A stretch of 64,000 nucleotides of DNA from Deltaproteobacteria bacterium (lineage in GTDB: Bacteria; Lernaellota; Lernaellaia; JACKCT01): contig JADLEX010000078.1 of the NCBI GenBank assembly GCA_020845895.1, positions 801-64,800 of the forward strand, written 5' to 3'. The notes beneath the pieces were generated by a model. The model ran no database searches. It had not been told where the DNA came from and saw nothing but the letters and a program-made list of their open reading frames with translations. Numbering within the stretch: position 1 is the first letter of the stretch; each line of letters begins with the position of its first letter. Positions 1-37,887 of this stretch are shown here, piece after piece. The position numbers were made by a program, and so were the translations under genes.

Positions 1-24
1 TGGCTTTGGACCGGTTGGGACGCC

Positions 25-303
25 TTGAGCTTAGCATTGCCCGGATTGCCTGCGCTCGGACTAATAGGCAAACCTGGACGATTTGATGACGTTATGGATG
101 CTCTAGATAAATGGCTGGGCCCTGGGGCACGAACGCGCTTTAACAAAGCAAACGACTGGTTCAGGCAGTCGGAGGACGAATTAAAGCAGGTTCGGTTTGA
201 CAAGAATAATCCATCGCCCCATGATAAACCTCATTTACATGTTACAGAGTGGTCCCCAGATGGCGAGGAGATTCTAAACAGACGTTACTTCATCGATGAG
301 TGA
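25..303 (+). CDS. C-terminal end of a larger protein running off the left window edge; putative polymorphic-toxin C-terminal (CT) domain with a His-rich motif (HDKPHLHV), function unknown
   Basis: Frame is open to position 1, so the gene begins upstream of the window. GC drops to ~45-48% here against ~67% for the rest. The stop overlaps the start of the next ORF (ATGA-type overlap at 296-303), a typical toxin-CT/immunity layout. The H-x3-H-x-H motif could belong to a metal-dependent nuclease or peptidase fold. Confidence 0.35.
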   Translation: MSLALPGLPALGLIGKPGRFDDVMDALDKWLGPGARTRFNKANDWFRQSEDELKQVRFDKNNPSPHDKPHLHVTEWSPDGEEILNRRYFIDE

Positions 304-925
304 GGAGGACACAGTGACGACTGTACGAGGAGAGAGATACTTGGTGATCGATGAACTCGGAAGTTCATATCGTTATATTCATGACAAAGAAAATGACGTT
401 CATCGAATTGTATTAGAAGGTCAGCAAATTGAAATGGGTTTATGTCTGAGCAAGATCGGAAGCATAGAAATACCATTATGTGAAGGCCCGGCGACCTCTG
501 AGGAGAATTTCTATTATTTGAAAAACCTTGGACGAAAGTCTTTGAGATTTCTTGATATGATCGAACATCTACGTGTTGCAAACGGGAATCGCAAAGTGAT
601 TATTGATTGCATCTTGGTTAATAAGTACGCTAAACTATTTCTAAGAGAGTTGCAATTACTGAGCTTTGACGACTATGAACTTGCGATGTGGGGTTCGCGA
701 GCAAAAAGCTTAGAAAAAAAGGGAATTATCAACCAGCTCTCCGGGGATGATCATATGTTAAACATGGCGAGCGTTGCCGATGAGGTTCTCATCGACGCGT
801 ATGATAAGAAAGAAGTCGCTATAAAAATAAAACTTAATACAAGTTGTGGCAATGAAAGAGTTCGCGATGTTGACCGGTTTGTTCAAATATTACTTCAGGG
901 AATTTCTCGTTCGGACAATCCGTGA
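296..925 (+). CDS. Putative cognate immunity protein (209 aa, cytoplasmic, no TM) encoded in a very AT-rich segment
   Basis: GC is about 38-40%, far below the genome background. It is translationally coupled to the preceding CT fragment. It has no signal peptide or TM segment and no similarity to a family I recognise. Confidence 0.35.
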   Translation: MSEEDTVTTVRGERYLVIDELGSSYRYIHDKENDVHRIVLEGQQIEMGLCLSKIGSIEIPLCEGPATSEENFYYLKNLGRKSLRFLDMIEHLRVANGNRKVIIDCILVNKYAKLFLRELQLLSFDDYELAMWGSRAKSLEKKGIINQLSGDDHMLNMASVADEVLIDAYDKKEVAIKIKLNTSCGNERVRDVDRFVQILLQGISRSDNP

Positions 926-1008
926 CTTAGATGAATAGATTATAGCTTGGAAATTCTTAAGCGGTTAGCAAGAGGCCACCTGCGGCCACGTAATTCGAGG
1001 AGAAATCG

Positions 1009-1772: not shown

Positions 1773-3218
1773 ATGCACGCCGTCGCATCCGATTTCCGCG
1801 TCCTCCTACTGCACGCGCCGTCGTACGAGGTGCTCGGAAACGTCGCGGGCCGCCCGTGGCGCGGGCGCAGCACGGCGCACATTCTCGGTCTCGGCTACCT
1901 TCGCGGCGCGATTTCGGATATCGCCCAGTGCGTGGTCCTCGACGTTTCGACGCGGCCGGATCCCGCGCGCGCCGTGGAAGAGCATCTCAGCGAAAACCGC
2001 TACGACCTGATCGGCCTGTCCGCCATCGTCTTCAGCCTGGGTTGGGCGCAAGTGTTCGCGCAGATCGCCCGGCGGACGCACCCACGCGCCCTCGTGGTGC
2101 TCGGCGGCGCGTCCACGACGTTTCCGATTTCGCTGCTGTGGGAACGCGTGCCCGACGCGCATGGGATCGTCGTCGGGGAAGGCGAACTCGCCCTGCGTGG
2201 GCTCGTCGAGGCGATGCGGGCGGGAAACCCTCTCGACGGACTCCCGGGGATTGTCTGGTCGGGGTCGGGGCACGAACGCCCGGCGACGCCATCGCCGCAG
2301 CCGGAAATGGACGCACTGGAATTTCCGCGGCCGGCGCTCGGGCGGACGGGCATCGATCTGCATCCGCCGTACGGACTCTACGCGCCGATCGCGCCCTACG
2401 AGACCTCGCGCGGGTGCCCCTGGCCGTGCTCGTTTTGCACGATTCGCCGGGGGTATCGCAAACGGTCGGTCGAGCGATGCGCCGGCGAACTGGCGACGCT
2501 GTACGAATCGCGCGATATTCGCGAGATCTACTTCGTCGATCCCACGTTCACGCTCGACGCCGGGCGCACACGCCAATTGTGCGAGGCGATGATCGCGCGC
2601 AAAACGAAACTGCGGTGGAGCTGCAAAACACGCGTGGACTGCGTGGACGACGAAACGCTCGCCCTCATGAAGCGGGCGGGCTGCTACCAGATCGCGCTCG
2701 GCGTGGAATCGGGCGACGAGGAAATCCTGCGCGCGACGGAAAAGGGCTCGACGCCGGGGGAGGTCGTCGAGGCGATTCGGAAGACGAATCGGCACGGCAT
2801 CAAGTCAATTGCCTACATGATCGTCGGCCATCCGCTGGAAAGCGAGGCGACGCTGGCGCGCTCGCAGGCCATGCTGCGCGAGGCGAAACCCACGTATGCG
2901 AGCGTCACGGGCTACGTGCCGATCGGCGTGGACGAGCCGACGTTTGCCGAGTACTGGCGCGGGGTGTTTGACGGCACGCTCTGCGATTGGCCGCGTTATC
3001 GCGTCGTCGCCAGGTGGGTGCGAAATTTCTATCTCACGTTCTATCTGCGCCCGCGCACCGTGTGGACGATCCTGATGTTCCTCGCCGCGCCGCGAGGGAT
3101 GGAGCAGATCGTGCGCGCGGCTTTCGATTTCGCCCGAAAGGCCGTCTTTTCCAGTCGAAAGCCAAAACCGGTCGCCATGTCGTCCGCGGACACGGCACCC
3201 GCCGCGACCGGCGCCTGA
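1773..3218 (+). CDS. Cobalamin (B12)-binding radical SAM protein (class B radical SAM)
   Basis: An N-terminal B12-binding-like domain is followed by the CxxxCxxC cluster 'CPWPCSFC', then a radical SAM core (GGE-like, 'YQIALGVESGDEEIL'). Confidence 0.8.
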   Translation: MHAVASDFRVLLLHAPSYEVLGNVAGRPWRGRSTAHILGLGYLRGAISDIAQCVVLDVSTRPDPARAVEEHLSENRYDLIGLSAIVFSLGWAQVFAQIARRTHPRALVVLGGASTTFPISLLWERVPDAHGIVVGEGELALRGLVEAMRAGNPLDGLPGIVWSGSGHERPATPSPQPEMDALEFPRPALGRTGIDLHPPYGLYAPIAPYETSRGCPWPCSFCTIRRGYRKRSVERCAGELATLYESRDIREIYFVDPTFTLDAGRTRQLCEAMIARKTKLRWSCKTRVDCVDDETLALMKRAGCYQIALGVESGDEEILRATEKGSTPGEVVEAIRKTNRHGIKSIAYMIVGHPLESEATLARSQAMLREAKPTYASVTGYVPIGVDEPTFAEYWRGVFDGTLCDWPRYRVVARWVRNFYLTFYLRPRTVWTILMFLAAPRGMEQIVRAAFDFARKAVFSSRKPKPVAMSSADTAPAATGA

Positions 3219-3232
3219 CGGTAGCAGTCCAT

Positions 3233-4930
3233 TCAAGGAGTGGCTCCAGACGGGCACTTGGCCGGATCCACCGGCGGACCCACAATGGTTTTCACATCGA
3301 CGCCAAACCCCGGCAGAAATTTCCAGAAAGACCACCGCCCTTTTCGCCAGGCATCGGCGGAAAGACACGTCATTCGACCCGCCGGCGCGTCCAGCCAGCG
3401 CACAACGTGCCGCTCCCCCGGAAAATCGGGGCCGGTCACGAACCAGGAGTTTTTCAGGTCCGCGTATGGAATCAAGGATGGTCCAACACTTGTCGCCCAA
3501 ATTTCCGGACCCGCCGTCCACCAGGGCGAAATATCGTTAGTGAACGGAATGTCTTTGCGATGCACGGGCATGAGTTCATTCACCACAGCCCATGACCGAC
3601 CGGATTCCGCGCCGTGCGGCGGACAGGGCGCGGTAGTCATGTTTCCGAATAGCAGCGCGAGATAATCGGGGGACTTCGACCACAGATAGACGGGACGATC
3701 GCCCCACTGCGTCCGATATTGTCTCACCAAGGACACCGCGTAGAGATCGGGCAACAGGTACCCCTCGATGCGGATGTCCTCACTTCGCAACCGGGCCGCG
3801 TCACGCCGGATGTCGAACGCGGCGATATCCTTGGCCGGACGCTGGTGATACCGGACGATTCCAACCGCGCCGAATACAATCCACGCCACGACAATAACCC
3901 AAGTCAAGGAGGTTCCGAGGGGTCGGTGCCGGTATAGGGTTGCCAGTCCGCATGCGAGCAGGAGAAACAAATAGGGTTGAATCGGCACCCAGAATCGAAT
4001 GGAAAATTTCGTCGTTCCAAAGATCCGATAAGCCAGGATCGACGCCACGAAAACGAGCGATGTCACCACGACCACCGGGCCGCGTCCCTGCCGGATCCAG
4101 GCCATCATTCCAAACGCGGTGATTCCCGCGCCAACTACTCCCAAGATCGGAGTGCCGAAAAGAAAGCCCAGAAGAAATGCGATCATCATGACGGGTGAGA
4201 CGCCGGTATACGAGTCGATATTCAACAAGTGTTCACGGCAAGTGACGGCGTAGACGATAAATCCGGCCAAAGAAATTCCGCTGAGCGCCGCGCCAAACAC
4301 AACCTGGCCAAAAAGGCGCAGACGATGGCCCCGAATCTCGGTCTCGACCGAACACACCCGGATGAGGATCCAACAAACATGGATGCCGAGAAAAATCAGA
4401 TAGCCTTGCGTGAAGGCACCGACTGTCGAAACGATCAACCACCCGGCGATCGCAGCACGATTCCCGCGCGCCAACGCCGAATCAAGAAATAAATGAGCCG
4501 CCAACGCGTATGCGGCCACGGTGGAATAGGGGCGAACCTCTTGGGCATACACCACCTGCAGTGGCGACCACGCGACCAGGAGTCCGGCCAACAACGACTC
4601 AGGAACTCCCGCACGGTGACGTCTCGCCATCATGACGGCCAAAGGGACGCAGGCCAGGCTCATGATCGCCGGAAATATGCGCAAAACGGTATCCGAAGCG
4701 CCCCACATCGCAAGCCATCGAACGCCCTCGCTAAAGGACAGATTCGGCAGATAATAAATCATGCGATCCGGCAGGCATTTGAACGAGGCGATCAAGACCT
4801 CCATCGCCTCATCGTTCCATAGTGGTTTACGGCCGATGTTCCAGAACCGCGTAACGGTCGCGATCATGGAAAGCAGCGCGACGGACAGCCACAATCGCCG
4901 CGTCGGGTGAGACAAAAATGATTGCGCCAT
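3233..4930 (-). CDS. GT-C fold membrane glycosyltransferase, ArnT/PMT-like (GT39/GT83 family)
   Basis: A ~565-aa polytopic membrane protein. It has the N-terminal 'LWNDEA' (DE motif in the first periplasmic loop) typical of ArnT/PMT glycosyltransferases. There are more than 10 predicted TM helices. Confidence 0.65.
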   Translation of the reverse strand: MAQSFLSHPTRRLWLSVALLSMIATVTRFWNIGRKPLWNDEAMEVLIASFKCLPDRMIYYLPNLSFSEGVRWLAMWGASDTVLRIFPAIMSLACVPLAVMMARRHRAGVPESLLAGLLVAWSPLQVVYAQEVRPYSTVAAYALAAHLFLDSALARGNRAAIAGWLIVSTVGAFTQGYLIFLGIHVCWILIRVCSVETEIRGHRLRLFGQVVFGAALSGISLAGFIVYAVTCREHLLNIDSYTGVSPVMMIAFLLGFLFGTPILGVVGAGITAFGMMAWIRQGRGPVVVVTSLVFVASILAYRIFGTTKFSIRFWVPIQPYLFLLLACGLATLYRHRPLGTSLTWVIVVAWIVFGAVGIVRYHQRPAKDIAAFDIRRDAARLRSEDIRIEGYLLPDLYAVSLVRQYRTQWGDRPVYLWSKSPDYLALLFGNMTTAPCPPHGAESGRSWAVVNELMPVHRKDIPFTNDISPWWTAGPEIWATSVGPSLIPYADLKNSWFVTGPDFPGERHVVRWLDAPAGRMTCLSADAWRKGRWSFWKFLPGFGVDVKTIVGPPVDPAKCPSGATP

Positions 4931-5021: not shown

Positions 5022-6479
5022 TCAAACCGTTGCCGCCTGAGCGACCGCGTCCGTGTCCATTCGACGACGGAACAGTAATCGACGGTAGTATTCGCCGGCC
5101 GTGATTCTCGCGCTCAAACGCGTGAATGATGCAAAGAGCAGGAATGGTCTCGTGCTGGCTGTGACGAGACGAAGAAGCCTTCGTGGCGAAAAAAATCGGC
5201 GGTAGGCGCGTTTCTGCGTGACCGACAGATCACGCCCGGTCGCCAAGGCATAGAACGAATGTTTGGGGTAGTAATCGTAGTCCAGGTCTTTAATTCGCTC
5301 GCCAAGTTCCGCCGCCGCAAGATCGTAAAGCGGCGTCTTGGGAAATGGAGTGAATGTGAAAAAACTCGCAAGGTTGAGTTTGGACTCCACGGCCAATTGC
5401 ACGGTCTTCTCGATTTCCTCCGCGGTTTCTGTCGGAAAACCGATGATGAAATATCCCTTCGTCAAGATTCCGATACTCGATGCGTAGCGAATGCTCTCCA
5501 TCAACCGTTCCGGTTTGAGCGCTTTTTTCAGAAGTTTCTGCACGCGATCGGAGCCCGATTCCACCGCGAAAGTCAGGTTGTAGCAACCGGCCCGCTTGAG
5601 CGCGTCGATCTGTTCCTTGTCGAGCAGGTCCCCCCGCACGCCGTTGGGGAACGCGATGTGGATTTTGTACGGTCGGGCTGCGATTTTTTCGCAAAACTCC
5701 AAAACGCGCCGCCGGTCGTAATTCCAGATGTCGTCCACGAACTGAATCTCATCTACGCGATGGTCGCGGACGAGAATATCGATCTCTTCCAGAACATGGT
5801 CCGTGGACCTCGCTCGCATTCTTCGACCCATCAGATTGTGACAATAAGTGCAATGGTACGGGCAACCTCTCGACGTCATGACCGGAGCGACGCGACGGCC
5901 GGCCTGAACCATCCCGTTCATGGAATTGACCGCGAGATAGTCTTTGAACCGAATGGATGACCAATCAGGAAATCCCAGGGCGTCCAAGTCCTGTGGGGCT
6001 TCCGAAACGGTTTCCGGTTGATCCAGATCGCCACGGGTGGCTACGCCGGGAATGGCGTCAGCATGTCGTTTCGAAAACAGGTTTCGCAAATACCGCGGGA
6101 ACGAATACTCGGCCTCGCCCAGGATGGCCGCATCGACCGCGGGACTGTCAAACGCGCATGCCCGATCGACCGTGGCCAACGGCCCCCCGGCCACGACGTG
6201 CGTCGCGGAATGAGCCCCTCGGACCACGTCGGCCGAGAGCGCAACGCCTTTTTGCTCGCCGAACAGCGCGCTGAGCCCGACCACATCGGGACGATAATCG
6301 GCGACCAATCTGGACAACGCGTCCAGCGGCTTTTTCTCGTTACGCGAGTCGTGAATACGAACGTCGACGTCTCCGCCAAAGTCCCTTTTGATGGCGGTGG
6401 ATAGCCAGAGTGGGCCGAGCGGCGGCGATGACGTCTTGACGGGAATAGGCTGACTGACGCGCACCATCAACACTCGCAT
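5022..6479 (-). CDS. Cobalamin-binding radical SAM protein
   Basis: Contains 'SRGCPYHCTYCHN' (Cx3Cx2C). The N-terminus 'MRVLMVRV...' is a Rossmann-like B12-binding domain. Start refined to the internal Met at 6479, because the upstream part of the longer ORF is Arg-rich nonsense overlapping the neighbouring gene. It sits ~7 bp downstream of the next radical SAM gene (operon). Confidence 0.8.
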   Translation of the reverse strand: MRVLMVRVSQPIPVKTSSPPLGPLWLSTAIKRDFGGDVDVRIHDSRNEKKPLDALSRLVADYRPDVVGLSALFGEQKGVALSADVVRGAHSATHVVAGGPLATVDRACAFDSPAVDAAILGEAEYSFPRYLRNLFSKRHADAIPGVATRGDLDQPETVSEAPQDLDALGFPDWSSIRFKDYLAVNSMNGMVQAGRRVAPVMTSRGCPYHCTYCHNLMGRRMRARSTDHVLEEIDILVRDHRVDEIQFVDDIWNYDRRRVLEFCEKIAARPYKIHIAFPNGVRGDLLDKEQIDALKRAGCYNLTFAVESGSDRVQKLLKKALKPERLMESIRYASSIGILTKGYFIIGFPTETAEEIEKTVQLAVESKLNLASFFTFTPFPKTPLYDLAAAELGERIKDLDYDYYPKHSFYALATGRDLSVTQKRAYRRFFSPRRLLRLVTASTRPFLLFASFTRLSARITAGEYYRRLLFRRRMDTDAVAQAATV

Positions 6480-8113
6480 GACGGACTCCCCTCGGTGGCA
6501 GGGTGTAAGGACTGCTCTCGAACCGCACCCGCGGATTGTGGGCGCACCCGACCAAAAGACTTTCGGAAACGACGGACGGTATCGCCGAGCGACCGGCCAA
6601 TACGTCCGCCCCCTTTTCCTCGGATTTCCGGCGTCGTCGCGACGGGTGCTCTGGGGAAACGCGGCATGAGCAAATCGGCGACGGCCTTTTCGATCATCAT
6701 GCCGAAATAGAAACGGCGCATACGCGCGCGCGCAATCGGTCGATAAAGCGTGCTCGCGAGCCGCAGCGGCCACGACCGGCTATAGTCGTTGATTTTGCGA
6801 TCAATGAATATCGACGCGAAATGCAGGCGTTCGAATTTTTCTTTTTTGTCGCCGTCATCCCACGAATACCGGTTCCATTCGCCCACGCGCGCCCAGCCTG
6901 CGAGCGAATCCGGCGCGCGAAATCCCGCCGCGACGGCATCCTGATAAACCTCGGTCCCTGGAAACGGCGTGAACAGATACAGAGGGCTGGTGCGAAATCG
7001 GGAATTGAGTTCGAGCAGATCCACCATCAGTTTCGCGGTCTGCCGCGTGTCGTCCTCGGTTTCGGAAGGGAGGCCGGTCATGAAGCTCGCGAAGAGGTTC
7101 AACTGAAAGTTTGCGAGTCGCCGAACCTGCTCGACCACCTGCGGCACGTCGCCCTGCTTCTTGATGTACGTGCGGATGCGTTCCGAGCCGCTCTCGATGC
7201 CGATCGTAACCCTCTTGCAACCGCTTTTTTCCACGAGTCGCAGGTCGTCATCCGTCAGCCGGGCGAGGCTGTAGATGTCCACGCCCTGCACCTCGTAAGT
7301 CAGATCCGTGGTGAGAAACAGTTCCGCCAGACGCAGCGCGCGTTTCTTGTTGATGAAGAAATTGTCGTCGACAAAATAGACCGAACCGAAATCGTGTTTT
7401 CTGCGCAGCGCGAGGATGTGCTCGAAGAGCCGCTCGGGCTCGATCGCGCGCCAGCGCGTGTCGTTCATGACGGTGTTGTAGCAATAGGTGCAGTCGTACG
7501 GGCAACCGCGGCTGCCCTGCGTGTAAAGCGTCGGCACGCCCTGATACGTGGGAAGATACGGACGCAGATCGGCGTCGATGGTGGGCAGCAGCGGGATGCG
7601 TTCGCCGCGCATCAGCGGGCGTTTCGCCGTGACCGAGACACGGCCGTTCTCGGAAAACGCGATTCCGGGGATCTCGCCGAGCGGGCGGCGCTCGATCAGA
7701 TACGAAACGATTTCGCCGAAGGTCTCCTCGCCCTCGCCGATGACCACGGCGTCCACGAGTTCGTGCGCGGCGGTCTGCTGGGCCGTGAGACTCGCGTGCA
7801 CGCCGCCCCAGATCACCGGCGTCGGCCCCGATTCGCGCACGATGCGCGCGGCGTCCATGGCGTTGACGAGCATGTCGGAGGTGTAAGACGTCAGGCCGAC
7901 GGCGACCGTCGGTGCTTCGCGAAGCCAAGCTGCGAGCGTCGATCGCCAACCGGAGTCGAGCCGCGCGTCGAGAAGACGTACGCGCACTCCCTCGGGAACG
8001 CCGGTCGAAACGGCCATCAGGCCGAGCGGAGGGGAGGGCGCCGAGCGGAGAAAATCCATGTAGCCGATCGCCGGCTGGATCAGGATGACCTGCGGATTCG
8101 CGGATGTCGGCAT
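6467..8113 (-). CDS. Cobalamin-binding radical SAM protein
   Basis: Contains 'GSRGCPYDCTYCYNT' (Cx3Cx2C). The N-terminus 'MPTSANPQVILIQPAIGYMDFLRSAPSPPLGLMAV' is a B12-binding domain. Start refined to Met at 8113. It is co-directional with the 5022..6479 and 3233..4930 genes. Confidence 0.8.
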   Translation of the reverse strand: MPTSANPQVILIQPAIGYMDFLRSAPSPPLGLMAVSTGVPEGVRVRLLDARLDSGWRSTLAAWLREAPTVAVGLTSYTSDMLVNAMDAARIVRESGPTPVIWGGVHASLTAQQTAAHELVDAVVIGEGEETFGEIVSYLIERRPLGEIPGIAFSENGRVSVTAKRPLMRGERIPLLPTIDADLRPYLPTYQGVPTLYTQGSRGCPYDCTYCYNTVMNDTRWRAIEPERLFEHILALRRKHDFGSVYFVDDNFFINKKRALRLAELFLTTDLTYEVQGVDIYSLARLTDDDLRLVEKSGCKRVTIGIESGSERIRTYIKKQGDVPQVVEQVRRLANFQLNLFASFMTGLPSETEDDTRQTAKLMVDLLELNSRFRTSPLYLFTPFPGTEVYQDAVAAGFRAPDSLAGWARVGEWNRYSWDDGDKKEKFERLHFASIFIDRKINDYSRSWPLRLASTLYRPIARARMRRFYFGMMIEKAVADLLMPRFPRAPVATTPEIRGKGGGRIGRSLGDTVRRFRKSFGRVRPQSAGAVREQSLHPATEGSPSCEC

Positions 8114-35208: not shown

Positions 35209-35493
35209 CCGGTCGTCGCGCTGCTGCTCGGTAACCGACGGACCTTCCTCCTCGGGGAGAGGGCCGGAGAGCGTCTTGAACCGTTCCAAGGTGCCTGCGC
35301 TCTCAAAAGGCGCATTTTCGTGAAATCCATTACGGGACATATTACGTAACCGTTAGTACAGTGTGTTCACGCAAAATGTAATCCCGTTGCGACTCGGCCG
35401 CGAAAAACGGGTCTGCCCCCGCGAATCGCAAGAGCGCCGACTGGTGGCGCCAGTGTGGGTTTCGGTCCTGGAATCGGATCTTTGGAGGGAAAC

Positions 35494-37887
35494 ATGCGCC
35501 TTGGGACGATCGTATTGGTGATTCTTGCGGCTCTCGGCTCGTTGCTCTCCTGCGTTGGGTCCGATGGTGAGACGCGTTCGGAGCCGGCTTCCAATACGTC
35601 GGAACTCGCGGGCGGACATTGGTCCTCCGAGGTGCAATCCCGCATCCGCGTCGAGGAATACCGGCTTCAACCGGATGATGGCGCGTTCGCGGGACGCAAT
35701 CCCGCCCAGCGTTTCTCAATCGAGATGGATGCTGACGGTGTTTCCCTCGCGTTGACCGTGCATGACACCGACCACGACTGGACCTGGTCCACCGTGGGAT
35801 TCGGTCGCGAGGGATCGGTCCTCGACGCGGCGTCGGCTTCTCCCGCCCCGGGGGACTGCGCGTTGCCGCCCGAATACGGCTTCGGCGACGTTTGCCTGTC
35901 GCAGATCGAGTACGACCGCGGCGAATTGGTGGAGTGGTACGCGAACCGGATGGGCGGGCTGGAGCAGGGCTTCGAGGTCTTCGGCGAGCCGACCGGGAAT
36001 GGACTTCTCGTGATCGAGGGTCGGGTTTCCACGACGCTCGCCGGTCGGGGGAACGCCGATCTCTCCGAGATCCTTTTCGCGGATGAAACAGGCGATGTGC
36101 TGCGTTACTCGGGTCTTTCCGTTCGGGACGCCAACGGCGTTCCGCTGGATAGCTGGATGGAGTGGGTCGAGCCCGACACGATCCGCCTGATCGTGGATGA
36201 CGCGGGCGCCCTGTACCCCATTACGGTGGACCCTGGCCTGTCCGACGCACCGGACTGGATCTTCGAAAGCAACCAGGAGGGCGCCTTTTTCGGCTTGTCC
36301 GTTTCCGGCGCGGGGGACGTGAACGACGACGGCTACGACGACGTGATCGTGGGAGCACATTGGTATACCAACGGACAAATTGGAGAGGGCCGCGCCTATG
36401 TCTTCTTGGGATCGGACTCGGGAGTACAGTCCTCGCCGGTCTGGACCTACGAGAGCGACCTGCCTGAAGCTAGATTTGGCAGTTCGGTTTCCGGCGCGGG
36501 GGATGTTAACAACGATGGCTACGACGACGTGATAGTTGGTGCTCATGGATTCAACAACGTCGATGAGTTCGAAGGACGGGCTTACGCTTTTTTGGGTTCT
36601 GGATCCGGCCCACAAAACTCTCCGGTGTGGATTGAAGAACCTCATGCGCAGACTTGGTTCGGTGTTAGTGTTTCTGGTGCGGGAGATGTCAACGGAGACG
36701 GAAATGACGATGTTATTGTCGGAGCATCTCATGCATCCAATGGACATAACCGAGAAGGCAGAGCCTACGTTTATTTAGGCACAGATTCCGGAATTCAATA
36801 TTCACCCGTATGGACAGCTGAAGGCAGTCAAACGAAAGGCTATTTTGGCAATCCTGTGTCAGGCGCGGGCGATGTGAATAACGACGGCTACGATGACGTG
36901 CTCGTGGGACAGCCTTACTTTTCCAATGGACAGAACTATGAGGGACGAGCCTACGTATACTTGGGAACCAGTTCTGGATTGCAGTCGTCTCCGATATGGA
37001 TATACGAAGGACAACAAGATAATGCCATCTTGGGAGGGTCGGTTTCAGATGCCGGTGACATTAATGGCGACGGATATGACGACGTGGTCATCGGAGCGCA
37101 AGTGTATGACAACGGCCAGAACAATGAGGGCCGTGCCTTCGTCTTCTTGGGATCGATCTCGGGAGGTCAGTCCTCTCCGGTCTGGACCCAGGAGAGTAAC
37201 CAGGTCCGTGCCTACTTCGGCGATTCCGTTTCCGGCGCTGGAGACGTGAACAACGACGGCTACGACGACGTGGTTATCGGAGCTTATGGTTATGCGAACG
37301 GCCAGAACCATGAAGGTCGTGCTTACGTCTTTTTGGGAACGGATTCGGGGTTGCAGTCGTCGCCGGTCTGGACCCATGAGAGCAACTGGGCCGAGTCCTA
37401 TTTCAGCAGTTCGCTTTCCGGCGCGGGAGACGTGAACAACGACGGCTACGACGACGTGATCGTCGGAGCGTACAAGTATGACAACGACCAGAACAACGAA
37501 GGCCGTGCCTGCGTGTTTCATGGGGAGATGCCGACCACCACCACTACCACCACCACCAGCTCCTCCACGACAACAACAACGACGACGACAACGACGACGA
37601 CGACGACAACGACAACAACAACGACCGCGACTTCATCTTCGACGACCTCCTCGACGGCATCCTCGTCGACCACCACAACCGTTACGACGACGACAGGTTC
37701 ATCGACGACTACGACGACAGCCGGTAGCGACGACGACACCGGCGACGACGATGCGGGCGATGACGACACGGGTGATGACGACCCCCCCGATGAAGACCCG
37801 AGAGGCGACCCCATTGACCCGATAGACAGGGAAAAAGGGGGGGATTCGGACGACGACGACGACCGTGGAAGCGGATGTAGCGTTTAG
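35494..37887 (+). CDS. FG-GAP repeat lipoprotein, tandem paralog of 32913..35162, with poly-Thr/Ser and Asp-rich tail ending 'RGSGCSV'
   Basis: Lipobox 'LLSCVG'. The first ~700 nt are ~90% identical to the preceding gene. There are multiple FG-GAP repeats. The tail 'TTTTTTTTSSSTTTTTTTTTTTTTTTTTTTTATSSS...DDDTGDDDAGDDDTGDDDPPDED' follows. Confidence 0.75.
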   Translation: MRLGTIVLVILAALGSLLSCVGSDGETRSEPASNTSELAGGHWSSEVQSRIRVEEYRLQPDDGAFAGRNPAQRFSIEMDADGVSLALTVHDTDHDWTWSTVGFGREGSVLDAASASPAPGDCALPPEYGFGDVCLSQIEYDRGELVEWYANRMGGLEQGFEVFGEPTGNGLLVIEGRVSTTLAGRGNADLSEILFADETGDVLRYSGLSVRDANGVPLDSWMEWVEPDTIRLIVDDAGALYPITVDPGLSDAPDWIFESNQEGAFFGLSVSGAGDVNDDGYDDVIVGAHWYTNGQIGEGRAYVFLGSDSGVQSSPVWTYESDLPEARFGSSVSGAGDVNNDGYDDVIVGAHGFNNVDEFEGRAYAFLGSGSGPQNSPVWIEEPHAQTWFGVSVSGAGDVNGDGNDDVIVGASHASNGHNREGRAYVYLGTDSGIQYSPVWTAEGSQTKGYFGNPVSGAGDVNNDGYDDVLVGQPYFSNGQNYEGRAYVYLGTSSGLQSSPIWIYEGQQDNAILGGSVSDAGDINGDGYDDVVIGAQVYDNGQNNEGRAFVFLGSISGGQSSPVWTQESNQVRAYFGDSVSGAGDVNNDGYDDVVIGAYGYANGQNHEGRAYVFLGTDSGLQSSPVWTHESNWAESYFSSSLSGAGDVNNDGYDDVIVGAYKYDNDQNNEGRACVFHGEMPTTTTTTTTSSSTTTTTTTTTTTTTTTTTTTTATSSSTTSSTASSSTTTTVTTTTGSSTTTTTAGSDDDTGDDDAGDDDTGDDDPPDEDPRGDPIDPIDREKGGDSDDDDDRGSGCSV

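Follow-up and report, generated by a model that had tools for sequence, protein, structure and literature searches.

We consider it probable, at about 0.8, that the first 950 nucleotides of the DNA analysed here, a 64,000-nucleotide stretch of contig JADLEX010000078.1 from a Deltaproteobacteria bacterium (this whole stretch is called the window in the following), belong to a polymorphic-toxin locus of the Rhs type, of which they form the variable end with the 100 final codons of an Rhs gene (open reading frame 1, ORF1) and a tightly coupled downstream gene (ORF2). As such, the locus is an unremarkable representative of a known kind of Rhs toxin/immunity system and, since Rhs tips with immunity genes are textbook knowledge, it adds little by itself. 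Three by-products of its analysis reach further, namely (i) a well-defined and widespread toxin-domain family, comprising ~230 clusters (50% identity), for which the searched copies of Pfam and NCBIfam have no entry; (ii) at least two families of small acidic partner proteins, likewise missing from these copies, which are possible additions to the immunity catalogues; and (iii) a concrete hypothesis that ties the His cluster of the toxin domain to DUF4160/DhiT. The features on which the argument is built are given below, with residues of the toxin domain numbered as in the 100-amino-acid (aa) fragment encoded in the window.

1..303, plus strand: 3'-terminal part of the polymorphic toxin gene (ORF1; Rhs family), 100% identical to residues 267-366 of MCC6158460.1 (P0002); stop codon TGA at 301-303.
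1..81, plus strand: hydrophobic Gly/Ala/Leu-rich linker WLWTGWDALSLALPGLPALGLIGKPGR between Rhs core and toxin domain, representing the end of a 68-residue spacer; low AlphaFold2 confidence (predicted local distance difference test, pLDDT, 48-60).
82..291, plus strand: toxin domain, fragment residues 28-97, with a helix at 28-39 and strands at 44-47, 53-56, 62-67, 78-84 and 90-97 (AlphaFold2 model and family alignments).
193..240, plus strand: putative active-site motif R65-F66-D67 ... P73-H74-D-K-P77-H78-L-H80, with H74 at nucleotides (nt) 220-222, H78 at 232-234 and H80 at 238-240.
296..925, plus strand: ORF2, candidate immunity gene, 209 aa from an ATG at 296 that has no Shine-Dalgarno sequence; stop codon TGA at 923-925.
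302..308, plus strand: Shine-Dalgarno-like GAGGAGG, as read from the sequence, overlapping the toxin stop codon and followed, after a gap of 5 nt, by an in-frame GTG at 314.
584..709, plus strand: ORF2 residues 97-138 (GNRKVIIDCILVNKYAKLFLRELQLLSFDDYELAMW), weakly resembling the helical half of the small partner protein Imm-A introduced below.
926..1008, no strand: intergenic stretch over which the guanine-plus-cytosine (GC) content rises from ~40% to ~70% (100-bp profile), forming the right boundary of the low-GC cassette.

The strongest evidence comes from the protein to which the fragment belongs. Frame 1 is open from base 1 and encodes ...NNPSPHDKPHLHVTEW..., with the His-rich stretch HDKPHLHV at 220-243. 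When 1.84 billion representatives were searched exhaustively with phmmer, the 100-residue fragment matched P0002 (MCC6158460.1, 366 aa), which is named 'MAG: RHS domain-containing protein, partial [Deltaproteobacteria bacterium]' at NCBI (MAG, metagenome-assembled genome). The first-pass annotation, made from the letters of the window, had taken ORF1 for the C-terminal end of a larger protein that starts outside the window, and it is indeed the last 100 residues of P0002. The corresponding gene is the first on a contig of 69,449 bp, where it adjoins MCC6158461.1 (ORF2 counted from GTG 344); it has no start codon and is 5'-partial, beginning at the contig edge ~798 bp to the left of the window. 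Within P0002, PF03527 matches residues 104-138 (45.2 bits; cutoff 27.9) and TIGR03696 (Rhs_assc_core) residues 152-225 (69.2 bits; cutoff 32.5), the latter match ending 41 residues before the window. The upstream gene is consequently that of an Rhs protein and not of a housekeeping protein, and the polymorphic-toxin architecture proposed in the first-pass annotation is supported by an Rhs core directly upstream of a variable C-terminus. In these two respects, as well as in the coupled downstream gene and the AT-rich tip, the locus resembles the established Rhs/YD systems.

An AT-rich toxin tip that, together with a downstream gene, stands behind a GC-rich core is the classic Rhs pattern, and the restriction of low GC to exactly these two elements is a further reason for reading the segment as an Rhs tip. 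The drop in GC over the first ~950 bp, which had been noticed from the beginning, amounts to 43.1% against 64.0% for positions 951-64000, with 40.2% in ORF2. Across the 64 kb, windows of 600 bp have a mean GC of 63.7% (standard deviation 4.3%) and reach their minimum of 40.0% at the left edge (1-950). Within the window the dip is unique to the cassette and not shared by unrelated genes: no other stretch falls below 45%, and values below 52% occur elsewhere solely at ~36,400-37,200 (50-52%). The same break is seen at third codon positions, where GC is 50% in ORF1 and 39% in ORF2 as compared to 83-84% in the next two genes (84% in the gene at 1009-1509, beyond the cassette). It should be noted that this break is seen relative to the window DNA on the right, as the core DNA itself lies outside the window. 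A scan of positions 1-1800 for promoters and terminators returned no more of them than are found in shuffled sequence.

The second, shallower dip at ~36,400-37,200 lies in a plus-strand gene (35455-37887) for an 810-aa protein that consists of repeated '..GDVNNDGYDDVIVGA..' units, FG-GAP/VCBS-like by eye, followed by a Thr-rich and then an Asp-rich tail. It reflects the composition of the repeats and is not a foreign cassette.

The tip itself carries a domain of ~70 residues with one helix and five strands and the motif WLG..N..GD..S..RFD..PH..PH.H. An AlphaFold2 model built with 43 sequences has a pLDDT of 88-95 over residues 31-90 and of 78 for residues 91-100. HDKPHLHV, initially recorded as a His-rich motif, is thus part of a real conserved domain: among 148 sequences, G40 (99%), N48 (98%), D52 (99%), S57 (95%), R65 (99%), F66 (93%), D67 (99%), P73 (97%), H74 (97%), P77 (91%), H78 (100%) and H80 (100%) are near-invariant, and all twelve are intact in the window copy. 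The exhaustive search returned 230 relatives at E<=1e-3. Among the matches listed (150), the domain sits at the very C-terminus, not more than 63 residues away from it, in 148; the two found elsewhere are repeat-protein artefacts and were discarded as spurious.

Relatives range from 67 to 3869 aa, and the Rhs/YD proteins among them from 1220 to 3869 aa, with RHS_repeat, DUF6531 and TEN_YD-shell (teneurin-type YD shell) in the long ones. An Rhs core is present in 47 of the 74 relatives that have at least 150 residues upstream of the domain, while the N-termini of the others have no Pfam match and include some signal peptides and, by eye, one Hint-like motif. Modular reuse behind different carriers is typical of polymorphic toxins, and since the domain is reused C-terminally in precisely this manner, we regard it as a polymorphic-toxin domain. 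Many database members are short stand-alone proteins; most of the short matches, however, stem from small contigs (1-4 kb) and probably represent fragments. By the names of their sources, hits belong to Chlamydiota, Bacillota, Omnitrophota and Desulfovibrionaceae, with one more from an Asgard-labelled MAG. The family appears to be unnamed, and the absence of its domain from Pfam and NCBIfam is a difference from the established Rhs/YD systems. The statement of the first-pass annotation that it recognised neither protein agrees with the searches: the window fragment has no match in the curated libraries (Pfam, NCBIfam) or among PDB sequences, a search of the PDB with the family profile (E<=10) matched no chain, and searches of PADLOC, PHROGs and PDB sequences with both the toxin fragment and ORF2 were empty.

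Two observations on the distribution of the family may be added. One member (P0176) comes from a MAG labelled 'Candidatus Hodarchaeota archaeon' (3.6-kb contig) and would, if the binning is right, be an archaeal Rhs-type toxin tip. Another, a stand-alone copy of 73 aa (P0157), recurs on 23 JGI contigs (e.g. L048, 5001-5222); in the six places shown (L048-L053), IS110-family transposase genes lie beside it, accompanied in five cases by phage-capsid genes, as if these copies were carried along by a repeated mobile unit.

Several points weigh against the interpretation of the segment as the end of an Rhs toxin locus. The Rhs core to the left, for which the first-pass annotation had suggested extending the contig, was recovered through the exhaustive protein search, but the contig ends ~0.8 kb to the left of the window, and neither a delivery domain or YD-repeat shell nor a PAAR, VgrG or type VI secretion system (T6SS) gene is visible. 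RHS_repeat is not called in the 366 residues of P0002, and no other Rhs sequence is present in the 64-kb window. The cleavage motif is also a variant. The core end reads YIYAHNNPLLYVDFEGS, in which the Asp and the Gly of the autocleavage motif P-x4-D-P-x-G-L are kept and DFEG replaces DPxG (…NPLLYVDFEGS instead of …DPxGL); in relatives, DPTG, DPDG, DAFG and DFNG are found at this site. The 'YPxDVPH' found at the C-terminus of most members is, furthermore, missing from the window copy, which is also acidic (net charge of about -3 to -5) whereas the family consensus is basic (isoelectric point, pI, 9.9).

Since the visible core before the toxin region comprises only ~125 residues and the preceding 100 residues of P0002 are not Rhs-like (they include a signal-peptide-like segment, RGGRRRGGFVCLAAAMTLAVTAVPAPAFA), this copy is probably either an orphan, i.e. 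displaced, toxin/immunity module or the end of a gene left where the assembly broke off at the repeated core. Its visible build of core remnant, 68-residue spacer and C-terminal domain is that of 'orphan' Rhs modules, and an assembly break at the repeated core would leave the same picture. The linker at 1..81 is not conserved across the family, and the spacer between core end and toxin helix varies in relatives from 36 to 303 aa (median 118 aa).

From here it is a short step to the view that the cassette is a dead remnant, namely an unexportable Rhs fragment whose downstream gene persists as stand-alone 'orphan immunity', or in which neither gene is functional. The short core and the first 100 residues, which are unlike Rhs, would fit this view, as would the loss of YPxDVPH, the abundance of orphan modules of the same build among the relatives, the decayed copies found elsewhere (the 73-aa remnant beside IS110 elements) and the fact that a frame has a ~10% chance of being open over 100 codons in DNA of 67% GC. 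It is at odds, however, with the integrity of all twelve near-invariant residues and with two open frames that are tightly coupled and equipped with a strong ribosome-binding site. In addition, the signal-peptide-like segment of P0002 could support a short secreted form, and Rhs orphans are known to regain activity when they recombine with the main rhs gene. From our point of view, a dead remnant is therefore unlikely, even if it has to be taken seriously.

For a functional Rhs toxin locus, the following course of events can be imagined. The toxin tip and ORF2 were acquired together, as a cassette of low GC behind an Rhs core that is GC-rich. By analogy to established Rhs proteins, the aspartyl autoprotease of the core would release the C-terminal piece, and a secretion machine, which in Gram-negatives usually is a T6SS, would deliver the toxin to a neighbouring cell, in the cytoplasm of which it could act as a small metal-dependent hydrolase. 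ORF2, again by analogy, would bind and block the toxin in the producer cell.

With regard to ORF2, the first-pass annotation had described a 209-aa reading frame that overlaps the stop codon of the first gene, and the frame from ATG 296 to TGA 925 does so by 8 nt (ATGAGTGA). In one relative (L002), the immunity gene starts at the equivalent overlapping ATG (ATGAATGA). Alternative starts are GTG 314 (203 aa), which with its perfect GAGGAGG may be the real one, and GTG 344 (193 aa; the NCBI call, MCC6158461.1 or P0001). This leaves the start uncertain, yet the coupling of the two genes is tight whichever start is chosen. A frame of 209 codons would stay open by chance with a probability of ~1.5e-7 in the local base composition. 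The earlier description of the product as cytoplasmic is reasonable, given that it has no hydrophobic or transmembrane segment (maximum Kyte-Doolittle hydropathy over 19 residues 1.06). Together with its acidity (pI 5.35), its position, the shared overlap geometry and the low GC, this fits an immunity role.

The toxin relatives show what such a partner can look like. In ~20 loci of the closest toxin subfamily, a conserved acidic protein of 60-70 aa, which we call Imm-A, follows directly after the toxin gene (overlapping or at a distance of 0-15 nt), with the consensus ..SMVQEC.DSY.V...DG.I.I.I.VPKRFADLWLVKLSELRTTD.EI.EYE and no match in Pfam or the PDB. It occurs as two tandem genes in L013 and as a fused tandem pair in L032. 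A second acidic family of 71-80 aa, Imm-B, is found in L028, L034, L047 and L052, and two further loci (L003 and L025) have unrelated downstream proteins of 108 and 159 aa. With its downstream partners falling into at least three or four unrelated families, the toxin family evidently uses several immunity families. In three relatives, finally, units of Rhs-core fragment, different toxin tip and small gene are arranged in consecutive arrays, namely in an Omnitrophota MAG (L001, 1-3900), a Desulfovibrionaceae MAG (L002, 1-7425) and plasmid pPNK of Protochlamydia naegleriophila (L047, 1-7074), where a complete 'RHS repeat protein' precedes the array.

Measured against these families, the assignment of ORF2 meets with objections. 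Its immunity role is deduced from position while the closest relatives have a different, small conserved protein downstream, and ORF2 is not a clear member of that family. Nor was a homologue found: ORF2 has no match in curated families or the PDB and none in the genome collection, plasmids, viral contigs or fetched loci, and the word-indexed protein search returned ORF2 alone. The latter tool missed the 100%-identical P0002 although it is present in its collection, and its negatives, including that for ORF2, are weak. A single-sequence AlphaFold2 model of ORF2 is uninformative (pLDDT 36).

A faint similarity to Imm-A exists nevertheless. Against a profile of 18-19 Imm-A members, whole ORF2 scores 5.2 bits, a value reached by 20 of 5000 shuffled sequences. 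The signal comes from the middle of the protein, where residues 79-145 score 6.6 bits in HMMER (reached by 2 of 3000 shuffles); the score of residues 1-78 was reached by 117 of 3000 shuffles, and residues 146-209 gave nothing. In hhalign, residues 97-136 align to the helical half of Imm-A over 40 ungapped columns (P=0.011, probability 3.8%), and BLASTP of ORF2 against the Imm-A proteins found nothing significant. Taken together, the profile comparisons hint at a possible Imm-A-derived core inside a larger protein. Two other ideas were abandoned, namely that ORF2 consists of three tandem repeats, for which there is support in the middle segment only, and that it is related to Imm-B, in which case 3028 of 5000 shuffles score as well.

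One might also suppose that ORF2 is an unrelated passenger of the low-GC insert and that the true small partner of Imm-A type was lost or replaced. The difference in size between ORF2 (193-209 aa) and the 60-70-aa protein of the ~20 closest loci, the empty BLASTP comparison, the lack of a homologue and the uninformative structure prediction are all in line with this. What speaks for a partner instead is the 8-nt ATGAxTGA overlap with the toxin stop, which is the same as for the immunity gene of L002, the low GC shared with the toxin tip, the acidic cytoplasmic product and the resemblance of the central segment to Imm-A (2 of 3000 shuffles; hhalign P=0.011). Furthermore, the toxin family draws its downstream partners from no fewer than three or four unrelated families, and Imm-A exists in fused or tandem copies (L013, L032). 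A passenger gene thus appears to be a little less probable than a dead remnant, and ORF2 as the immunity gene of the locus stays the preferred interpretation.

As to what the toxin does, our tentative proposal, to which we would give slightly less than even odds, is a small metal-dependent hydrolase that acts in the cytoplasm and is most likely a DNase. It is prompted by the conserved D-x6-H-x3-H-x-H arrangement with additional Asn, Asp, Ser and Arg residues, by weak links to DUF4160/DhiT and to PT7, and by the acidic partners. Net charge was dropped as an argument for DNA binding, since members range from -6 to +12 (net negative in 26 of 148) and the window copy is negative. Against the proposal stands, above all, that a nuclease assignment finds no significant support in sequence or fold: Foldseek returned no significant match for the toxin model (best E 0.76 in the PDB and 0.05 in BFVD), and the comparisons to DUF4160 and PT7 score low, as detailed in the following.

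DUF4160, the toxin of the DhiTA system, has been shown in vivo to be toxic and to be neutralised (PMC8198452), and it is a predicted effector domain of Menshen NsnC that reportedly has no structural homologue (PMC12065111). In a Pfam scan, 19 of 73 family members matched DUF4160 weakly at E<1 (best E 0.0036), while the window fragment itself did not match. The family consensus reaches 19 bits against the Pfam model (PF13711; cutoff 23) and covers model positions 4-27 of 65. An hhalign comparison of the toxin family with 12 annotated DUF4160 proteins from plasmids gave P=4e-4 and a probability of 34% over only 18 columns. Common to both is a strand followed by P-H-x-x-P-H-x-H with identical spacing (DH.PPHFHA in DUF4160, PH..PH.HV here); both are, moreover, small domains with no known fold relative, and in both the toxin gene precedes its neutraliser. 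The similarity, however, spans just 18-25 residues. The conserved helical C-terminal half of DUF4160 (LP..A..LV.EW...H..EL...W) is absent from the toxin family, and DUF4160 in turn lacks the N-terminal helix and the two strands (WLG..N..GD..S) seen here. The partners differ as well: in 11 of the 12 plasmid DUF4160 genes the downstream neighbour is annotated as DUF2442, to which neither ORF2 nor the small partner proteins have a match. A distant homology of the toxin family to DUF4160 is thus possible, judging from these alignments. Should both this link and the nuclease prediction be true, a widespread toxin family of toxin-antitoxin systems would gain a mechanism.

That the pair might itself work inside the cell as a toxin-antitoxin module for addiction or defence, in the manner of DUF4160/DUF2442 (DhiTA), and not as an exported weapon is, in our opinion, very improbable: the DUF4160-like H-x3-H-x-H strand, the order of toxin before antitoxin (PMC8198452) and the many short stand-alone members would agree with it, but here, as in most relatives having upstream sequence, the domain forms one continuous reading frame with an Rhs core, the DUF4160 score stays under the Pfam cutoff with the helical half missing, no DUF2442 match exists, and the short matches come mostly from small contigs and likely are fragments.

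The second link concerns PT7, a 78-aa metal-dependent DNase of novel fold that cannot do without D37, H47 or H73 (Nachmias et al., bioRxiv 10.1101/2021.10.19.465003), and the sequence of which was obtained from PDB entry 8OWU, chain B, located through the mutagenesis primers. Like the family described here, it is a small C-terminal polymorphic-toxin domain, equal in length, and its sequence, judged by eye, would fit an order of one helix and five strands. A colinear alignment of 47 columns puts G, N, G, R-x-D and H-x-H in register, such that D67 and H78/H80 align with D37 and H47/H49 of PT7, and the activity that we propose for the Rhs tip is likewise that of a metal-dependent DNase paired with an acidic immunity protein. 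On the other side, the comparison by hidden Markov model scores 2.1 bits, which 8% of shuffles also reach, hhalign against four PT7-family sequences gives P=0.037 and a probability of 1.4% over the 47 columns, and 8OWU appeared neither in the profile search of the PDB (E<=10) nor among the top 50 Foldseek matches. PT7 also has no counterpart of the first His (H74) and depends on a C-terminal His73 for which the window copy offers no equivalent, and its immunity protein PIM7 (117 aa) is unrelated to ORF2 (E 9.3). The resemblance, as seen in these alignments, is unproven.

One could speculate that an unnamed one-helix/five-strand fold with a D/H-x3-H-x-H metal site links DUF4160 to the PT7 DNases and that ORF2 is an enlarged immunity protein around a diverged Imm-A core. 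We consider this combination improbable, more so than either a dead remnant or a passenger ORF2. It would, if the link between DUF4160 and PT7 were true, provide DUF4160 toxins with a testable mechanism as metal-dependent DNases.

Stand-alone homologues of PT7 on Bacillus plasmids (L055, 601-837, and the plasmid hits designated H43, H46, H48 and H50) are annotated as 'transposase', as is 8OWU chain B; this looks like a propagated misannotation. Two of the copies carry substitutions at the positions aligned with the catalytic residues, namely D37 to A and H49 to D in L055 and H49 to Y in L057.

Other His-bearing toxins fit less well. PT1 (Nachmias et al.), whose mutated residues H44 and H48 share the x3 spacing, was not linked to the family, as no PDB chain matches the family profile. 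Tox-REHH (Rehh/RehhI), with conserved R46, H52, E53, H102 and H121 (bioRxiv 10.64898/2026.09.22.753552), is similar in concept, being an unannotated His-rich metal-pocket toxin found on Rhs and other carriers and neutralised by several unrelated acidic immunity families. Its conserved residues, however, are spread over >75 residues, whereas the invariant His residues here lie within 7 residues of a ~70-aa domain. The published motif, R..HE....H....H with metal-binding His residues ~50 and 19 apart, sets the two apart, as the alignment of 148 sequences contains no conserved His-Glu pair, and no relationship in sequence was apparent. For the HNH and His-Me finger models (Tox-HNH, AHH, LHH, WHH, SHH, GH-E and similar), no Pfam match was obtained with the window fragment (E<=10) or among the families listed for 73 members (E<=1), and the toxin model has no helix after the His-bearing strands, unlike a beta-beta-alpha-metal core.

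To the right of the cassette, the neighbouring genes are of a different kind. Directly adjoining it on the plus strand is a GC-rich gene (1009-1509; stop codon TAG at 1507-1509), the product of which resembles a lipoprotein and has a long linker rich in Asp and Gly as well as an FGE-sulfatase domain (PF03781, E 1.2e-9). Only model positions 4-102 of 255 are covered and the hit runs up to the stop codon, so that the gene looks truncated or like a pseudogene. Further downstream, the ORF list contains two large reading frames with CxxxCxxC motifs typical of radical-SAM enzymes, at 1773-3218 on the plus strand (SRGCPWPCSFC) and at 5022-6773 on the minus strand (SRGCPYHCTYC), and between them lies a gene for a 565-aa multi-pass membrane protein (3233-4930, minus strand).

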